Positions 37,236 through 44,548 of a stretch of 64,000 nucleotides of DNA are shown one piece after another (the first letter of the stretch is position 1; each line of letters opens with the position of its first letter). Origin of the DNA: Sunxiuqinia sp. (GTDB taxonomy: Bacteria > Bacteroidota > Bacteroidia > Bacteroidales > Prolixibacteraceae); the NCBI GenBank assembly GCA_037446835.1, contig JBBIHV010000004.1:832-64831 (forward strand), in the 5' to 3' direction. The position numbers were made by a program, and so were the translations under genes. A model generated the notes under the pieces. That model saw nothing but the letters and a program-made list of their open reading frames with translations, had not been told where the DNA came from and ran no database searches.

Positions 37236-39260
37236 CTACCAAATCAAGGCCCGGTCAGCTTCCTTGAGGTACATAAAATCCCCTTCCTTCACGTTAAAAG
37301 CCTTCTGAAATTCAGGCATATTGCGCAGTGGCCCTAAAACCCTGAAGCGTCCCAGCGAATGGACATCATCTTTGGTCAGGCGGACAATTTCCTTATCTCT
37401 GATGTTCTGTGCCCACAAATGTGCATAGGCCAGGAAAAAACGCTGATCGGGCGTAAATCCATCGATAGGTTTCTCGTTACCGGTAAGTACTTTCTGGAGG
37501 GCATGGTATGCCACATTTAAACCGCCCAAATCAGCAATGTTTTCACCCAAAGTCAACGCGCCATTTGCTTTGAGTGAATCGAGTACGGTAAAACTATTAA
37601 ACTGATTGACTAAAACTTGTGTCCGCTCGTTAAATTTTTTTGAATCCTCTGCGGTCCACCAGTCAGCCAGGTTCCCGAATTTGTCGTACTGACGCCCTTC
37701 ATCGTCAAAACCGTGTGTCATTTCATGTCCGATGACCACGCCAATCGCACCGTAATTCACGGCATCGTCGCCATTGGTGTAAAAGAAAGGAGGCTGAAGA
37801 ATTGCCGCTGGGAACACAATTTCGTTCTTCGATGGGTTGTAATACGCATTGACCTCCTGAGGAGGCATCATCCATTCGGCGCGGTCAACCGGCTTATTTA
37901 TTTTCGAGATCATGAAATTAAAATCGAAGCTATTAGACTTCAGTACATTATCGACATAAGACAGTGTCGAAACCTGAAGCCCTGAATAGTCGCGCCATTT
38001 ATCCGGATACCCAATTTTAACAGCAATCGCATCAAGCTTTTCGAGTGCTTTCGTTTTGGTTGCATCGCTCATCCATGCCACATTTTTAATGCGGTCGCCA
38101 AGCGAAACTTTCAGGTTTCCAACCAGTTCAACCATTCGTTTTTTTGATTCAGCCGGGAAATATTTCTGAACGTACATTTGCCCAAGTGCTTCGCTCAGGG
38201 CTCCATCGGTTGCACCCTGCACCCGTTTCCATCGTGGCCGTTGGGCCATTTGACCGGAAAGCGTTTTACCGTAAAAATCGAAACTCTGGTTCACAAAAGC
38301 AGCCGGAAGATATGGGGCAAGGCTCCTGACCACCTTCCATTTCAGGTAAGTTTTCCAGTTATCAACCGGTATTTCTTTCAACATTTTGCCCAGTTCGGTA
38401 AAAAAGGCAGGCTGCCCAACAATAAAATCGCCCGGATTTTGAAGGCCAATATGCTGGAAATAAGAAGACCAGTTAATTTCAGGAGAAATTTTCCGGAGCC
38501 CCTCCACGTTCATTTTATGGTAAATATTATGTGGGTCGCGCAATTCAAGCTTGGTCATCGACACAGCGGCCAGCCTTTTTTCCAGGTTATAAATCATTTC
38601 GGCATCCGATTTTGCTGAAGGTTCAGCGGAACCATCCAACACAAACATTTTTTGAAGATACGTCCGGTAAGCTTCCTGAATTTCCTTGCTACGCTGGTCG
38701 TCCTTCATATAATAGTCGCGATCGGGCAGGCCCAATCCACCCTGGAACAGGTAAGCCACAACCATTTGCGAATTTTTCTGGTCGGCATCCGAAAAGATCA
38801 AGAACATCGGGAATATCTGATGTGCCTGTAAATCGGCAACCACGTTCAGCACATCCTGGCTGTTCTTCGCCAACGAAATCTCATCAAACAAAGGCTGAAG
38901 AGGCTTAAGGCCATCCGACTCTATTTTGGCGGTATCCATTCCGGTGTTGTAAAAATCGGCAATCTTTTGGGCGATTGTCCCGGGTTCCTGCTTCTTTGAA
39001 GCAATTTCGGTGATCAACTTTTGAACCTGAACTTCGCCGGTATCGGCCAGCAAATCGAACGATCCGAACCTGCTTTTTTCAGCCGGGATCGGGTAACGTT
39101 TTTTCCAGCCACCATTGGCATAATTGTCGAAGTCGGTTGCCGGGCTTACGGTTGTATCCAGATCGGCCAGATCAATGGCCTTCGGCCTGGGGCCTTCGTG
39201 TGTACAGGCCAGGCTCCCCAGCAACAATGACGTTAAAACAAATCGATTTAAATTTCTCAT
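37236..39260 (-). CDS. M13-family metalloendopeptidase (PepO-like), lipoprotein
   Basis: VNAYY, GHEMTHGFD (HExxH), GENIAD, DVHS; start re-assigned to ATG 39260, lipobox LAC. Confidence 0.95.
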   Translation of the reverse strand: MRNLNRFVLTSLLLGSLACTHEGPRPKAIDLADLDTTVSPATDFDNYANGGWKKRYPIPAEKSRFGSFDLLADTGEVQVQKLITEIASKKQEPGTIAQKIADFYNTGMDTAKIESDGLKPLQPLFDEISLAKNSQDVLNVVADLQAHQIFPMFLIFSDADQKNSQMVVAYLFQGGLGLPDRDYYMKDDQRSKEIQEAYRTYLQKMFVLDGSAEPSAKSDAEMIYNLEKRLAAVSMTKLELRDPHNIYHKMNVEGLRKISPEINWSSYFQHIGLQNPGDFIVGQPAFFTELGKMLKEIPVDNWKTYLKWKVVRSLAPYLPAAFVNQSFDFYGKTLSGQMAQRPRWKRVQGATDGALSEALGQMYVQKYFPAESKKRMVELVGNLKVSLGDRIKNVAWMSDATKTKALEKLDAIAVKIGYPDKWRDYSGLQVSTLSYVDNVLKSNSFDFNFMISKINKPVDRAEWMMPPQEVNAYYNPSKNEIVFPAAILQPPFFYTNGDDAVNYGAIGVVIGHEMTHGFDDEGRQYDKFGNLADWWTAEDSKKFNERTQVLVNQFNSFTVLDSLKANGALTLGENIADLGGLNVAYHALQKVLTGNEKPIDGFTPDQRFFLAYAHLWAQNIRDKEIVRLTKDDVHSLGRFRVLGPLRNMPEFQKAFNVKEGDFMYLKEADRALIW

Positions 39261-39556
39261 AACAAAAAAATATAGTTGTAAATATTCAGCCCCGGGAATT
39301 TCAAAAATAGTCAATTGACTATTTGTCATCCATTTCAGGAAAGATTACAAAAAAACCACAAAAAAACTACATCAGGTTTCAGGACAAAAAATACGAAGTT
39401 TTTTGGAGCTGGCTAACCTGAAAACAACGCTTTTGCGACAAACATGCTCAACAACAGCGACAAACAACCCCATATCAGCCCAAGAAGATAACATTTTATC
39501 TTTTTTTTCAACATGAAAACAAGTAAATTTCAATCATCTGAAAATCAAATACACAA

Positions 39557-39994
39557 ATGAAGATCCTGTTTCTGTGTACCGGTGGCAATTCGTGCCGAAG
39601 TTTGATGGCCGAAACTTTCCTTCAGCAAATGGATAAGTCGCTGGAAGTATCTTCGGCGGGGCTTCATCCCGATAGTCAGACCGATCCGATGGCTGTAAAA
39701 GTTATGCAGGAAGCCGGGATTGATATGAGCGCAAAAAAGCCGAAAAGTTACCTGGAATTTGAAGGGAAACCGGTGGATTACCTCATAACAATATGCGACG
39801 GAACAATTGACAAAATAACTTCTGTCAACATTCCTGCCACACACAAATTTCATTTGGGGTTCGAAGATCCGCGAAAAGCGCTCAGCAACGAAGAGCATTT
39901 AGTTGATATTTACCGCAATATCCGCGACGAGATCAGGAATGAACTCGATTATTTTTATACCCGCATCCTGATCCCAAAACTGGTCAGAGAATAG
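39557..39994 (+). CDS. ArsC / LMW-PTP family protein with atypical active site
   Basis: CTGGNSCRS (one-residue insertion), SSAG, ITIC, FEDP. Confidence 0.8.
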   Translation: MKILFLCTGGNSCRSLMAETFLQQMDKSLEVSSAGLHPDSQTDPMAVKVMQEAGIDMSAKKPKSYLEFEGKPVDYLITICDGTIDKITSVNIPATHKFHLGFEDPRKALSNEEHLVDIYRNIRDEIRNELDYFYTRILIPKLVRE

Positions 39995-40014
39995 ATTCAA
40001 CCGTTTTTTCAGGC

Positions 40015-40046
40015 AAAAGCCCAAGCAAACAAATGCCCGGGCTTTT
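40015..40046. terminator. Bidirectional terminator between arsC-like gene and the orphan pepP tail
   Basis: AAAAGCCC...GGGCTTTT. Confidence 0.7.
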
Positions 40047-40216
40047 TAATTTTTCCTGAAGCTCAAACTCATCACTTGTTCAACTTCGTCGGGAGTAATT
40101 GGAATGCGGTCGCCAAGAATTTCGCTGCCGGTTTCAGATACAAAAATGTCATCTTCCAGCCTTATTCCGCCAAAACACAGGTAACCAGCCAAATGATCGG
40201 AATTCACCCGCCCTGT
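40047..40216 (-). pseudogene. Orphan copy of the pepP 3' end
   Basis: Minus-strand frame TGRVNSDHLAGYLCFGGIRLEDDIFVSETGSEILGDRIPITPDEVEQVMSLSFRKN-stop; 40068-40175 matches 42274-42381 with 4 mismatches in 108 bp. Confidence 0.9.
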
Positions 40217-40357
40217 TCATCTCAAGGAGGCCCAACTATTCCATTTTAAACTGAAAATTTTTTTTAACAATTTCTTTTTCATTATGAAATATAACTGCAA
40301 TTTCTCTGCAACAACGATGCTCTACATTTGCCGATAATTTATTGATCACAAAAAAAA

Positions 40358-42199
40358 ATGAAAATGAAAAAAACCCTACAACATTTATTATCAGCAACTT
40401 TGATCTTTAGTTCTGTATTGGTCGCGCAAGACTTGATCGCACAACCGGGTTATGTTACCGGCGATTTTCACCAACACACCACTTACACCGATGGTAGTTA
40501 TTCATTTGGTAAAATGATGGAAATGAACAACAAATTCGGTCTCGATTGGTGGGCTAACAGCGAGCATGGTGGCGGTTTCCCAACCTGGGGGATTGTAACC
40601 GGAATTGACCTCGGCACAAGTGTGAAATGGAGCGCAGCAGGAATTACCCCACTTGGTACCGCAAATGGTGAAAATATGTGGCGCTGGCAAGAGTTGCGCG
40701 ACTGGTCGTTTCGCGATGTACAACTTTGGCGCCGGGTTTTGCCCGACAAGGTAATCATCCAGGCTTATGAAATGAATGTCCCCGGACATGAGCATGCATC
40801 ATTTGCGATTATTGCCAATCAATTCGATGTAACCAACCCGAATGTGAATCCATTGGCACAATTCGAATACATGTTCGATAATGGCGACAAAGATGTATCC
40901 AGTCCAAATAATTGGATAAAAAGTACTAAAACCGGTCATGAAAAAGCGATTGAAGCTATGGCTTGGCTGGAAGCCAACTATCCTAAGCAAAGTTGGGTAA
41001 TTCCGGCGCACCCCGAACGTTATAAATACAATAGCAAGACAGGTTGGGACATTAATCACTTCCGCGACCTTAACAATGCAGCTCCTGATGTATTCTTCGG
41101 CTTTGAAAGTGTACCTGGCCATCAAAAAGGTAAAAATCGCGGCGAGTATGGATCAACACGTCCTTCATACGGTATCGAAACTTATGGTGGAGCCGGATGG
41201 ATGTCGGCAAAAGTAGGCGGTTTGTGGGATGCAATGTTGAGCGAAGATCGTCATTTTTGGCTGTTTGCCAACTCCGACTGCCACAATAACGAGGATGACG
41301 GAAGCGACTTCTTCCCCGGAGAATACCAAAAAAACTACACTTTTGTAAGCAATAAAAAAGATCCTCAAGCCATTGCCGATGGACTACGTTCAGGTAATTC
41401 GTATGTTGTAATGGGCGATCTGATTGACTCTCTTCAATTTAAAATTGGCACCGCCAAAATGGGTGGTGTCTTTGAATCAACTGATGGGAAGATTAGTATT
41501 ACAATCCGCCTTCGTGATCCACAAGGAACAAACAACAATCGTTATAGCAACTATACAAACCCAGAGTTGGATCATATTGACATAATTGCCGGAACAGTAG
41601 GCCCAAAAGTTGACCCGGCAAACACCGATGAATACAAAAAAGATTCAGTAAGCACAACCAAAGTGATTGCCCGTTTCGGAAAGTCATCCTATACCGATGG
41701 AAATGGTCTTGTCACTCAAATCTGGACTGAGAAAGCTGATGGATGGAAAGAAATGAACTTAGATTTTACAATCCCAACCGGTAAGAAAATGTATTTCCGT
41801 TTACGTGGAACAAACCTAGCTATCAATACAGCTAACGAAACAGACAAAAACGGCAACCCATTAATTGATACTGAGGGACTTAATACTCCAGCCATTGCTT
41901 TTGCCGACCTATGGTTCTATTCGAACCCTGTATTTGCGTTAAATAAAACGACTCTCTCTTCAAGCGTTATACGAAACGCTGAGTTTAAAATCTATCCAAA
42001 TCCAGTCAAAGAAATGCTTAATATCGATTTTACCAAGCCTCAAAAAGGCGATCTGGTTATCTCCGATTTTTCAGGTAAAACTGTATTAAAATCGAGTATT
42101 GACGGAGAATTTTCAAAGCAAATTTCAATCAAAGGCCTTGCAAAAGGTTCTTACATTGTGAGCATCGATGGTATTTCGCAAAAAATAATAGTTGACTAG
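40358..42199 (+). CDS. PHP-family metal-dependent phosphoesterase with T9SS type A C-terminal sorting domain
   Basis: Signal peptide; GDFHQHT, SEHG, GHEH, AHPER, NSDCH; C-terminal IYPNP...G.Y...QKIIVD. Confidence 0.8.
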   Translation: MKMKKTLQHLLSATLIFSSVLVAQDLIAQPGYVTGDFHQHTTYTDGSYSFGKMMEMNNKFGLDWWANSEHGGGFPTWGIVTGIDLGTSVKWSAAGITPLGTANGENMWRWQELRDWSFRDVQLWRRVLPDKVIIQAYEMNVPGHEHASFAIIANQFDVTNPNVNPLAQFEYMFDNGDKDVSSPNNWIKSTKTGHEKAIEAMAWLEANYPKQSWVIPAHPERYKYNSKTGWDINHFRDLNNAAPDVFFGFESVPGHQKGKNRGEYGSTRPSYGIETYGGAGWMSAKVGGLWDAMLSEDRHFWLFANSDCHNNEDDGSDFFPGEYQKNYTFVSNKKDPQAIADGLRSGNSYVVMGDLIDSLQFKIGTAKMGGVFESTDGKISITIRLRDPQGTNNNRYSNYTNPELDHIDIIAGTVGPKVDPANTDEYKKDSVSTTKVIARFGKSSYTDGNGLVTQIWTEKADGWKEMNLDFTIPTGKKMYFRLRGTNLAINTANETDKNGNPLIDTEGLNTPAIAFADLWFYSNPVFALNKTTLSSSVIRNAEFKIYPNPVKEMLNIDFTKPQKGDLVISDFSGKTVLKSSIDGEFSKQISIKGLAKGSYIVSIDGISQKIIVD

Positions 42200-42224
42200 C
42201 CAATTGCTACTTTTTCAAATCACA

Positions 42225-42256
42225 GAAAGAGGTGAATCAAACGGTTCACCTCTTTC
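42225..42256. terminator. Bidirectional terminator PHP gene / pepP
   Basis: GAAAGAGGTGAA / TTCACCTCTTTC, perfect 12 bp stem. Confidence 0.75.
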
Positions 42257-42263
42257 AATTTTC

Positions 42264-43661
42264 TCAGCACGATCTCATCACTTCTTCAACTTCGTCGGGA
42301 GTAATTGGAATGCGGTCGCCAAGAATTTCGCTGCCGGTTTCGGTTACCAAAATGTCATCTTCCAGCCTTATTCCGCCAAAATCAAGGAAACTTTCCAAAT
42401 GGTTGAAATTGATAAAACCGGTATTGATTTTTTCGGCTTTCCACTTTTCAATCAATGCCGGAATGAAATAGATGCCAGGTTCGTTGGTAATTACAAAACC
42501 CGGCTGAAGTTTCCGTCCCATGCGTACATAAGCCGTTCCAAACTGATCGACAGGCCTGGTTTCATCGTCATATCCCACATAAAGCTGTCCAAGGTCTTCC
42601 ATATCGTGAACATCCAGCCCCATCATGTGGCCCAATCCGTGCGGCATAAACAAGGCATGGGCGCCATTCCTGACAGCTTCCGTCACATCTCCCTTCATCA
42701 AACCCAGCTCCTTCAATCCTGAAGCAATTACTTCGGCAGCAGCCAGATGAACCGACATGTAGGTCGATCCGGGTTTGGTCAATTCGCGGGCACGATTATT
42801 GGCAGCAAGCACAATCTCATATATTTCGCGCTGTTTCTGTGAAAATTTGCCGCCAACAGGAACTGTTCGGGTAAAATCGGATGCGTAATGCGAACCGACT
42901 TCAGCCCCGGCATCGACCAGCAACAAACGCCCGTTTTGCAAGGCATCCGAGTGGTTGTGATTATGCAGTGTTTCACCGTGCTGCGACAGGATTACCGGAA
43001 AAGAAACCATTCCACCACCCGCATTGGCAATTCCTTCGATTGTTCCGGCAATGGTTTGTTCCCACACGCCGGCTTTGGCCATTTTCATGGCGGTAACATG
43101 CATCTGATAACCAACTACACAAGCTTTCCTGATCTCAGCAAGTTCCTGCGCTTCCTTAACCGAACGCAAATCAACAATGGCTTTAATCAATTCAACCGAA
43201 GCGTAGGTTTTTAGCTTCGAAACCGAAATGCCCAGCAATTCATTCAGCAACAGTTTATTTTCAGCGCGATATGGCGGTAGAAAATGAATTTTTCTTCCTG
43301 AAGTGATGGCTTTTTCAAGAATTTTTTGAAGATTTATGAAGGGTTCGGTTCTTTTAACGCCTACTTTTTCGGCTTTTTCAGAAAGTGCTACCTGAGGCCC
43401 CATCCAGATAATGTCTTCGATACTCACATTGTCGCCAAAAATAATTTCTTCGCCTGAATCCACATCAAGCACTCCGGCAAGATTTTGAAAATCAAGCCCA
43501 AAGAAGTACAAGAACGAACTGTCTTGCCTGAAATAAAAGGTATTATCGGCATAGTTCATTGGAGAATCGGCATTTCCCAGGAGCAAGATCAGGCCTTCGG
43601 AGATTTTCCTTTTCAATTGCTGCCTGCGGGCAATATAGGTTTCTGCTTTAAACATGTTCAT
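42264..43661 (-). CDS. pepP: Xaa-Pro aminopeptidase (M24B)
   Basis: FRQDSSFLYFFG, DAGAE, YASDFTRT, HGLGHMMGLDVHD, TNEPG, RLEDD; start at ATG 43661 or 43655. Confidence 0.93.
   Translation of the reverse strand: MNMFKAETYIARRQQLKRKISEGLILLLGNADSPMNYADNTFYFRQDSSFLYFFGLDFQNLAGVLDVDSGEEIIFGDNVSIEDIIWMGPQVALSEKAEKVGVKRTEPFINLQKILEKAITSGRKIHFLPPYRAENKLLLNELLGISVSKLKTYASVELIKAIVDLRSVKEAQELAEIRKACVVGYQMHVTAMKMAKAGVWEQTIAGTIEGIANAGGGMVSFPVILSQHGETLHNHNHSDALQNGRLLLVDAGAEVGSHYASDFTRTVPVGGKFSQKQREIYEIVLAANNRARELTKPGSTYMSVHLAAAEVIASGLKELGLMKGDVTEAVRNGAHALFMPHGLGHMMGLDVHDMEDLGQLYVGYDDETRPVDQFGTAYVRMGRKLQPGFVITNEPGIYFIPALIEKWKAEKINTGFINFNHLESFLDFGGIRLEDDILVTETGSEILGDRIPITPDEVEEVMRSC
42274..42381. repeat. 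Right copy of 108 bp direct repeat (pepP 3' end)
   Basis: Matches 40068-40175; offset 2206 bp. Confidence 0.9.
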
Positions 43662-43825
43662 CTTTTTTAATAATTCAGGGAAAGATAGAAAAAATACCAC
43701 TGCCAAAAACTGACAATAACCAGACAAATGTTTTATACTATATTGAAAAGTGAAAATCAATTGAATAATTTGCAAACCGCTACCCAAATTTTTCGTAAAT
43801 TAAACTAACCAAAATACTCAACGCC

Positions 43826-44548
43826 ATGAACAACTCTCTGATGATTTATCTGAACAAACGGCTGCACCAGAACGACCCAAAATATCAGGCAGCTGCTACT
43901 CATCCCGGACCGGTAATTTGTATTTCAAGAGAAGTGGGATGTGGGGGCGTAACCTTTGCCAGATTGTTGGCCGCTGAATTGGACAAACTTTCGGGCTACC
44001 ACAAATGGAAAGTTATTAGCAAGGAAATTTTGACTGAAAGTGCCCGCGAGTTGAATATGGACCGGAACAAGCTTCGAACCATAATAAAAGAAGGCGACAG
44101 GGGCGTATTTGATGAAATTCTTAGCGCTTTCAGCGAAAAAAGGTTTAAAAGCGACCGGAAAATCGGAAAAACGCTGCGCGACCTGATCAGAAGTTTTGCA
44201 ACGGATGGTTACTGCATTATTGTTGGAAGGGCAGGCCATATTTTTACCAAAGACATTGAAAAATCCTTATGTATTAAACTGACCGCCTCGCAGGATTGGA
44301 GAATAAAGCAGATTATGGTTAAAAACAACTTAAACCTGCGCGAAGCCATGGATTTCATTAATCAAACCGAAAAGGAAAGGCAAAACTTCCGGAAATATTT
44401 TGCAGACTTCAGCCACCAGGAAGATGAATTCGACCTGACAATTAACATTTCGCGGATAGACATTGACCGTGCAATTGCACTTGTCGGCTTTGCAGCACAG
44501 CATAAAGGTTTGCTGGAAACAAACAAAAGTAAGGTAGAAGTATTTTGA
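43826..44548 (+). CDS. Cytidylate kinase-like family protein
   Basis: ICISREVGCGG P-loop variant, IIVGRAG, DLTIN. Confidence 0.82.
   Translation: MNNSLMIYLNKRLHQNDPKYQAAATHPGPVICISREVGCGGVTFARLLAAELDKLSGYHKWKVISKEILTESARELNMDRNKLRTIIKEGDRGVFDEILSAFSEKRFKSDRKIGKTLRDLIRSFATDGYCIIVGRAGHIFTKDIEKSLCIKLTASQDWRIKQIMVKNNLNLREAMDFINQTEKERQNFRKYFADFSHQEDEFDLTINISRIDIDRAIALVGFAAQHKGLLETNKSKVEVF

Follow-up and report, generated by a model that had tools for sequence, protein, structure and literature searches.

In a 64,000-nucleotide stretch of the genome of a Sunxiuqinia sp. of the Prolixibacteraceae (contig JBBIHV010000004.1, forward-strand positions 832 to 64,831; herein referred to as the window, in whose coordinates all positions below are given unless another genome or contig is named), a single gene for a secreted protein stands between two copies of the 3' end of pepP, the gene for an Xaa-Pro aminopeptidase. 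One copy closes the complete pepP gene and the other, herein the orphan, is a truncated tail next to an arsC-like gene. We read this arrangement, with somewhat better than even confidence, as an old, recombinase-free scar, in which one imported gene (herein the cargo) lodged at the end of pepP and the dead copy of the tail was afterwards partly matched to the live gene. The locus is not demonstrably an active mobile element, and the event is an old one and not a fresh capture. Two observations carry this reading: the orphan bears residues peculiar to this lineage's own pepP, and its near-identity to the live gene is confined to a sharply bounded core within homology that has otherwise decayed.

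The repeat, the insert and their surroundings

The direct repeat occupies positions 40068–40175 and 42274–42381, with 104 of 108 bases identical in the same orientation at an offset of 2206 bp, as the original prediction (a reading of the window made from its letters alone) had described it. Mismatches at 40078, 40136, 40138 and 40142 leave perfect runs of 57 bp (40079–40135) and 33 bp (40143–40175), and no comparable repeat occurs elsewhere in 38000–44500, where the next longest has 27 nt at 70% identity. The diverged but colinear extension of a further 41 bp that the same prediction had seen is also real: homology runs on in register through 40176–40216 at 24 of 41 bases (binomial p = 4e-5 against a chance match rate of 0.28) and is gone past 40217, where 15 of 56 bases are identical. 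On the stop-codon side the identity of both copies ends at ...GTGATGAG, the last conserved codon. The ends beyond it (RSC* in the live gene, SLSFRKN* in the orphan) show no significant likeness, and the possibility that the duplication reached into the terminator was dropped on that ground.

What is duplicated here is the 3' end of pepP, the target gene, and the insert stands between a complete copy of the gene and one that is truncated on its 5' side. Live pepP (M24 family with an AMP_N domain) lies on the minus strand at 42264–43661, with its core at 42274–42381 and a variable flank at 42382–42422, and its tail reads TGFINFNHLESFLD...MRSC*. The orphan, also on the minus strand, reads TGRVNSDHLAGYLC...MSLSFRKN* and consists of a decayed flank preceded by a stop codon (TGRVNSDHLAGYLC; 40176–40216), the core (FGGIRLEDD…EQVM; 40068–40175) and its own end (…SLSFRKN*; 40046–40067). 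Each copy was said to have its own stop and its own terminator, and a strong predicted hairpin does follow each of the two different endings. The hairpin on the orphan side (40014–40047), common to the orphan and arsC, emerges from the fold of 39995–40066 on both strands at -19.2 and -25.4 kcal/mol (z -2.9 and -3.5), the stronger value being that of the orphan. That on the live-pepP side (-21 to -22 kcal/mol, z -3.7 to -5.5) is common to live pepP and the cargo gene, with a 12–14 bp stem at 42225–42256 (-22 kcal/mol, z -5.5). Both are likely bidirectional terminators that also serve the convergent neighbor, arsC in the one case and the cargo gene in the other.

Between the two copies, the only open reading frame (ORF) with family support is the cargo gene (40358–42199, plus strand), preceded by an upstream region (40217–40357, plus strand) whose left edge at 40216|40217, where pepP homology ends, is the putative joint. 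It encodes a 613-residue secreted protein with a signal peptide, a PHP/CehA-McbA-like region and a C-terminal sorting domain of the type IX secretion system (T9SS). The sorting domain is supported by Pfam (PF18962, 5.8e-12) and the CehA/McbA and PHP match is weak, below the curated cut-off; this is, as predicted, the sole gene of the islet. No tyrosine or serine recombinase is encoded between the repeats, in agreement with the claim that the islet lacks a recombinase, and there is neither a transposase in the islet nor a terminal inverted repeat at its ends.

The cargo looks foreign in type, as had been suspected. Its GC content at third codon positions (GC3) is 0.394, low for a genome that averages 0.506 ± 0.064 (5th percentile), and its codon-usage likelihood falls at the 14th percentile, and the impression that it is richer in A/T-ending codons therefore holds. 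A full-length homologue was found in one of 24 sampled congeners (G006), at a different locus, and the best homologue anywhere, in a Parabacteroides genome, is 69% identical. The closest homologues (69–65% identity) are single genes in unrelated neighborhoods without flanking repeats, and an exact look-up of the protein gave no match. The arrangement expected of a donor, with the cargo beside pepP in another genome, was not found among the congeners and the closest homologues. The islet is single-copy in its genome, 40217–40357 has no second copy there, and comparison of the orphan flank and the cargo's upstream DNA with 401 genomes of the order returned just A/T-rich chance matches. As a separate observation, the closest cargo homologue, in Parabacteroides sp. 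FAFU027, has on its downstream side a tandem array of three 85-bp units (L049, 7319–7573), which are 66–100% identical and internally show inverted symmetry.

The flanks of the locus are conserved. The order NDH2–M13–arsC–pepP–CMK-like–S9 recurs in the genus and, from synteny in congeners, is ancestral. In the window it is represented by an M13 family peptidase (37236–39329, minus strand; Pfam Peptidase_M13_N and Peptidase_M13), an arsC-like low-molecular-weight phosphatase (39557–39994, plus strand; Pfam LMWPc, 4e-20, with an NCBIfam arsC_pI258 match below the curated cut-off) and, on the 5' side of pepP, a cytidylate-kinase-like (CMK-like) gene (43826–44548, plus strand) with an S9 peptidase beyond it. 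pepP directly adjoins arsC, convergently, in five congeners (G018, G013, G017, G008 and G003; the source genome, a 269-contig draft, is G000), and the orphan tail, 52 bp from the arsC stop, sits at the expected place of a pepP end. This adjacency bears out the proposal that the insertion took place at the pepP 3' end, with the gene regenerated and a tail displaced toward arsC. Two points of annotation follow. The 53-codon ORF at 40046–40207 should be marked as a pepP pseudogene fragment, and the 507-residue pepP ORF that begins at a TTG at 43787 is too long at its 5' end (43662–43787); its homologues have 461 residues and align from about residue 43–45, which places the start at the ATG at 43661 or just downstream.

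The interval between pepP and arsC is variable in relatives, in which it holds differing small islets, none with mobility genes. In G021 a 5.7-kb islet lies between arsC and pepP (L023, G021:C8, 8008–13725) with four ORFs, including an AAA ATPase, an S8 protease (subtilase) and a DUF6261 protein, and a 750-bp sequence in G007 (L033, G007:C80, 256–1008) was judged by eye to be an AbiEii-like remnant; a tail duplication accompanies neither. G003 carries a 10 kb insert, and G005 and G015 retain scraps of M13 and arsC. Mobile DNA had also been considered downstream of pepP in G004, G014, G024, G019, G022 and G011; the DNA there instead follows an alternative gene order that is itself conserved, with a small ORF of unknown family, a GH108 lysozyme and M3 peptidases.

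A search of 50 congeners for pepP orphans gave one other case, in G003, with unrelated content (L021, G003:C55, 2049–2858). That orphan, in frame and evenly ~79% identical to G003's own pepP tail, lies 26 bp away from the stop of NDH2. Directly against its 5' edge is a truncated IS110-family transposase (the C-terminal 73 residues), of which a full copy (81%) is present on G003:C423; ten kb follow, with genes for a histidine kinase, a response regulator and a LamG-T9SS protein, and then a 33-residue M13 scrap. The pepP tail as a common attachment site was rejected, with orphans in 2 of 50 genomes and no integrase.

Ancestry of the two tails and the mosaic repeat

Whose tail each copy represents was judged against the 119 closest pepP homologues (120 sequences with the live pepP). 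These homologues and the congeners end in ...MR*, MRS*, MKL* and similar, mostly MR*; the live ending, MRSC*, is unique among the 120 and two residues longer than nearly all of them. The diverged orphan flank comprises 14 codons, and it shares with the live copy a G found in 2 of the 119 homologues and an H found in none of them. At two further positions the ancestral residues, D (111/119) and Y (119/119), survive in the orphan flank and are replaced in the live copy by a unique N and F. The shared rare residues and the retained ancestral ones together indicate that both copies descend from this lineage's own pepP, and that the orphan is a fossil of how that tail once read, not a foreign sequence. 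For the SC codons, stop and terminator of the live gene, the simplest source is the insert. Within pepP, sliding identity against the 119 homologues gives no sign of a recombination break.

The same comparison overturns the part of the original prediction that concerned ancestry. The tail was held to be foreign, and the diverged part of the orphan instead shares the lineage-specific G and H with the live copy; the orphan was taken for a hybrid with a donor 5' part and a host 3' part, and live pepP for a gene with a donor C-terminus, and both flanks prove to be of the same lineage. Relatives that lack the cargo were expected to end in ...MSLSFRKN, and across the genus they have ends of the MR*/MRS* type, an outcome that the prediction had itself listed as grounds for refutation.

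The second line of evidence is the uneven divergence of the repeat. Identity is 96% in the core and 58% in the flank, that is, 4 of 108 mismatches (3.7%) against 17 of 41 (41%; Fisher p = 4e-8). Conservation does not explain the similarity of the core, since congener tails match the live core at just 73–95 of 108 positions. Differences in the core affect three codons, and each changes the amino acid of the orphan (L>F, T>S and E>Q) away from the consensus residue, which the live copy has; between the core copies there is no synonymous difference. The sharp contrast of core and flank and the lack of synonymous differences argue for gene conversion of an old orphan, which probably ran from the live gene to the orphan, judging from the consensus residues of the former; the clustering of three of the four core mismatches in 7 bp suggests that it was patchy. 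The tract would end where it does because the sequences beyond that point were by then too divergent. Dispersed repeats are known to evolve in concert through gene conversion, as tufA and tufB do, and the present repeat resembles that pair in its sharp tract of near-identity inside diverged homology, free of synonymous differences; unlike that pair, one partner here is a dead 55-codon fragment and not a functional paralogue.

Weighing the origins of the insertion

Single-crossover (Campbell) integration of a nonreplicating circle, such as a suicide plasmid, yields an A-B-A arrangement with one complete and one truncated copy of the shared sequence. On the reading we favor, the cargo, with its own upstream region and terminator, would have been inserted at the end of pepP in the variable pepP–arsC interval, and the insertion would have doubled the last ~150 bp (~53 codons) of the lineage's own pepP, giving a product with the topology of a Campbell-type single crossover. 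The generating step was most likely a homologous insertion of a circularized fragment that carried the cargo and a same-lineage pepP tail, with the closure joint of the putative circle at 40216|40217. The pepP-proximal copy would have stayed the working end, reading two extra codons (SC) into the insert and using its terminator, and the arsC-proximal copy, at the position of the original gene end, would have turned into a dead fragment. The variable part and the end of the orphan would then have decayed, with the 108-bp core overwritten, presumably later, from the live gene, which would be why the core is still 96% identical. A Campbell-type crossover by itself leaves reciprocal donor/host hybrids with even divergence, in contrast to the 4/108 and 17/41 seen here, and it is compatible with the data only if the donor was of the same lineage and conversion came later.

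Several points weigh against this account. A 108-bp direct repeat should favor loss of the cargo, yet the cargo has been retained, and a dead 170-bp fragment that lasts until it is 41% decayed is unexpected in a deletion-biased genome. The own-lineage argument stands on four informative residues only, and the conversion is deduced from a pattern and not observed. The collections contain no genome of the same species: among 5.8 billion proteins the closest pepP has 88% identity, and 40 bp of the core had no exact match in the metagenome contigs scanned. The event is accordingly undated, and neither a donor nor an empty site is available for comparison. The assembly, finally, is a draft in 269 contigs. 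The last of these would also suit an assembly artefact, either an unrolled cycle in a metagenome assembly graph or two strains joined at the 57-bp run, which we regard as very improbable: both flanks as well as four core positions distinguish the copies; a chimeric join at the repeat would not set decayed pepP sequence directly against the upstream DNA of the cargo, as is seen here; and an orphan of the same kind occurs at gcvP in six independently assembled genomes.

The e14 element and phage 21 integrate into the 3' end of icd in Escherichia coli, regenerating the gene and leaving a tail of ~50–55 codons at the far end. The pepP locus resembles these in its regenerated 3' end and in the tail fragment at the far end of the insert, and an unlikely alternative is that a streamlined element of this type integrated site-specifically with a replacement pepP tail, after which deletions left one cargo gene; the live tail would then be element-borne, the orphan would be the host's original tail and both copies of the attachment site would have been kept. 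The topology and a displaced tail of ~55 codons fit, the orphan does look like an earlier form of the host tail, and two unique substitutions at otherwise invariant positions set the live tail apart, as does its end, longer by two residues. Several other tail-duplicated mini-islets in this genome, moreover, hold cargo of a sort usual in remnants of mobile elements (toxin–antitoxin (TA) pairs and an AbiEii toxin), and reduction of mobile elements to TA-only islets has been proposed (PMC13617665). Set against this, e14 and phage 21 have an integrase and an element-borne, distinguishable tail, whereas here there is one cargo gene without a recombinase, the two tails both belong to the host lineage and the repeat combines a 96% core with a 58% flank, a mosaic that streamlining alone leaves unexplained. 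No integrase was found here, in the 10-kb insert of G003 or at any parallel locus; no intact element was found at this site; and the two pepP orphans among 50 congeners are unrelated to each other.

Two further accounts concern the source of the incoming DNA. Linear DNA from a sister lineage, with the cargo and the 3' part of pepP, might have been anchored by homology in pepP and joined illegitimately at its other end at 40216|40217; the live tail would then have arrived with the cargo, and the orphan would be the complete former tail of the recipient. Such homology-facilitated illegitimate recombination is reportedly documented for natural transformation, requires neither a duplication step nor a circle and leaves the orphan in its native place by arsC, and both tails would be of the own lineage if the donor was a sister. 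We nonetheless hold it improbable: the lack of a recombination break along pepP speaks against it, the donor must already have had the cargo at its pepP stop codon, and gene conversion of the core is still needed afterwards. Less probable again is the original prediction, in which a circle with a foreign pepP tail and the cargo entered by a single crossover inside the 108 bp. It accommodates the A-B-A topology and the different ends and terminators of the two copies, but the 5' part of the orphan has this lineage's own rare residues, the endings of relatives resemble the live copy, the equal divergence it predicts for core and flank is contradicted by the 3.7% and 41% observed, and the cargo lies beside pepP in no genome searched. 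The favored insertion by a same-lineage circle shares with Campbell insertion-duplication and with homology-facilitated illegitimate recombination the A-B-A product and the sufficiency of host recombination functions; it differs from those laboratory and transformation events, which have known donors, in that here we infer both donor and circle and the event is old.

Tail-duplicated islets in the genome and the genus

Self-comparison of the genome's contigs revealed that the duplicated-tail architecture is not peculiar to pepP: at least five loci in this genome have it, and no recombinase was found at the parallel loci. One is gcvP, of which the tail is repeated around a HigBA pair (G000:C110:9107-10122, L059; 115 bp, 98%). 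The same order, a HigB/HigA cassette downstream of gcvP and then an orphan gcvP tail, is present in G000, G050, G009, G055, G013 and G047 (L065-L069), with orphan-to-live identities of 75–89% in the five other species against 98% in G000. Empty sites with the native spacer and terminator exist in G004, G014 and G057, and both gcvP copies of G013 keep this native spacer and terminator, which means that the duplicated unit was the tail with ~70 bp downstream of it. The G000 repeat also spans a 56-bp hairpin, which in G013, the only comparable congener, follows the live copy alone, and by this pattern the gcvP repeat of G000 would have undergone the same secondary homogenization as is proposed at pepP. 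The presence of the cassette in six species shows that such orphans can outlast speciation.

At menB (ECH_1 family) the last ~21 codons and the stop are doubled (G000:C11:19893-21822, L058; 66 bp, 88%) around a 574-residue AAA_15/AAA_21 ATPase, with the repeat beginning exactly at the stop codon. No menB orphan was found in other congeners, and second matches to the menB tail in G059 and G009 were set aside as contig-edge overlaps. An exact 539-bp repeat (100%) of a response-regulator tail and most of a DUF6922 gene surrounds an AbiEii toxin (G000:C47:20151-21984, L060); a loop in the assembly, or a tandem duplication that is recent and partial, could account for it. A 70-bp repeat (90%) at G000:C256:924-1897 belongs to a tail that is regulator-like or of an oxidoreductase, named from the sequence start only, and flanks a nucleotidyltransferase and HEPN pair recognized by eye only. 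On the 13-kb contig G000:C109 (L064), copies of the Ugd C-terminal domain accompany genes identified by Pfam as a nucleotidyltransferase and DUF3990; a partner read as HEPN has no Pfam match, and both contig ends fall in one repeat.

Self-comparison also turned up repeats of other kinds. Small genes lie between direct repeats of 80–104 bp (85–90% identity) at C228:38-1030, C92:7594-8451 and C115:3344-3780 of G000: the first encodes an IS200-like Y1 transposase (Pfam Y1_Tnp), the second a similar transposase and the third an 86-residue GIY-YIG-like protein, these two recognized by eye from the sequence start. At G000:C26:26724-28413 (L062), a hairpin-rich, non-coding repeat of 233 bp (96%) surrounds a 301-residue T9SS-secreted protein, between infB-like and ammonium-transporter-like genes named from the sequence start only. 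A 15-mer, AATGCGGTCGCCAAG, which encodes LGDRI, occurs in the M13 gene (38088–38102) and in both pepP tails (40103–40117 and 42309–42323), and its 12-mer core recurs in the gcvP tail (FGDRN; G000:C110, about 10100); as all of these encode (L/F)GDR, the sharing is probably a coincidence of codon usage.

Integration hotspots between core genes are known that lack integrases (Touchon et al. 2009; PMC2617782), and TA-only islets are described as spreading via recombination at flanking core genes (Belot et al. 2026; PMC13617665). The pepP–arsC interval is like both in holding differing islets without mobility genes. It departs from hotspot exchange by double crossover in the flanks, which leaves no duplicated tail, in that the pepP tail is duplicated; the only duplication described in the passages of Belot et al. 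consulted is a 24-bp palindrome, not a gene tail of 70–190 bp. One may speculate, with little confidence as yet, that cassettes of this genus (TA pairs, Abi-type genes and secreted enzymes) use a housekeeping 3' end of 70–190 bp and its terminator as portable homology, moving within and between genomes by RecA-dependent loop-out and Campbell re-insertion without a recombinase of their own, with conversion of the tails keeping them competent for recombination; the pepP, gcvP–HigBA, menB, response-regulator and Ugd loci would be members of such a system.

The pepP locus offers a natural example of a single foreign gene entering at the end of an essential-type gene without damage to it, and indicates that the dead gene end left over can persist, partly matched to the live gene by conversion. 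The parallel loci suggest that duplicated gene tails are a regular by-product, and possibly a vehicle, of the turnover of small islets in this group. The recurrence of tail-duplicated mini-islets in the genus is the part most worth following, as it bears on how integration hotspots, and TA and defence islets without mobility genes, move.

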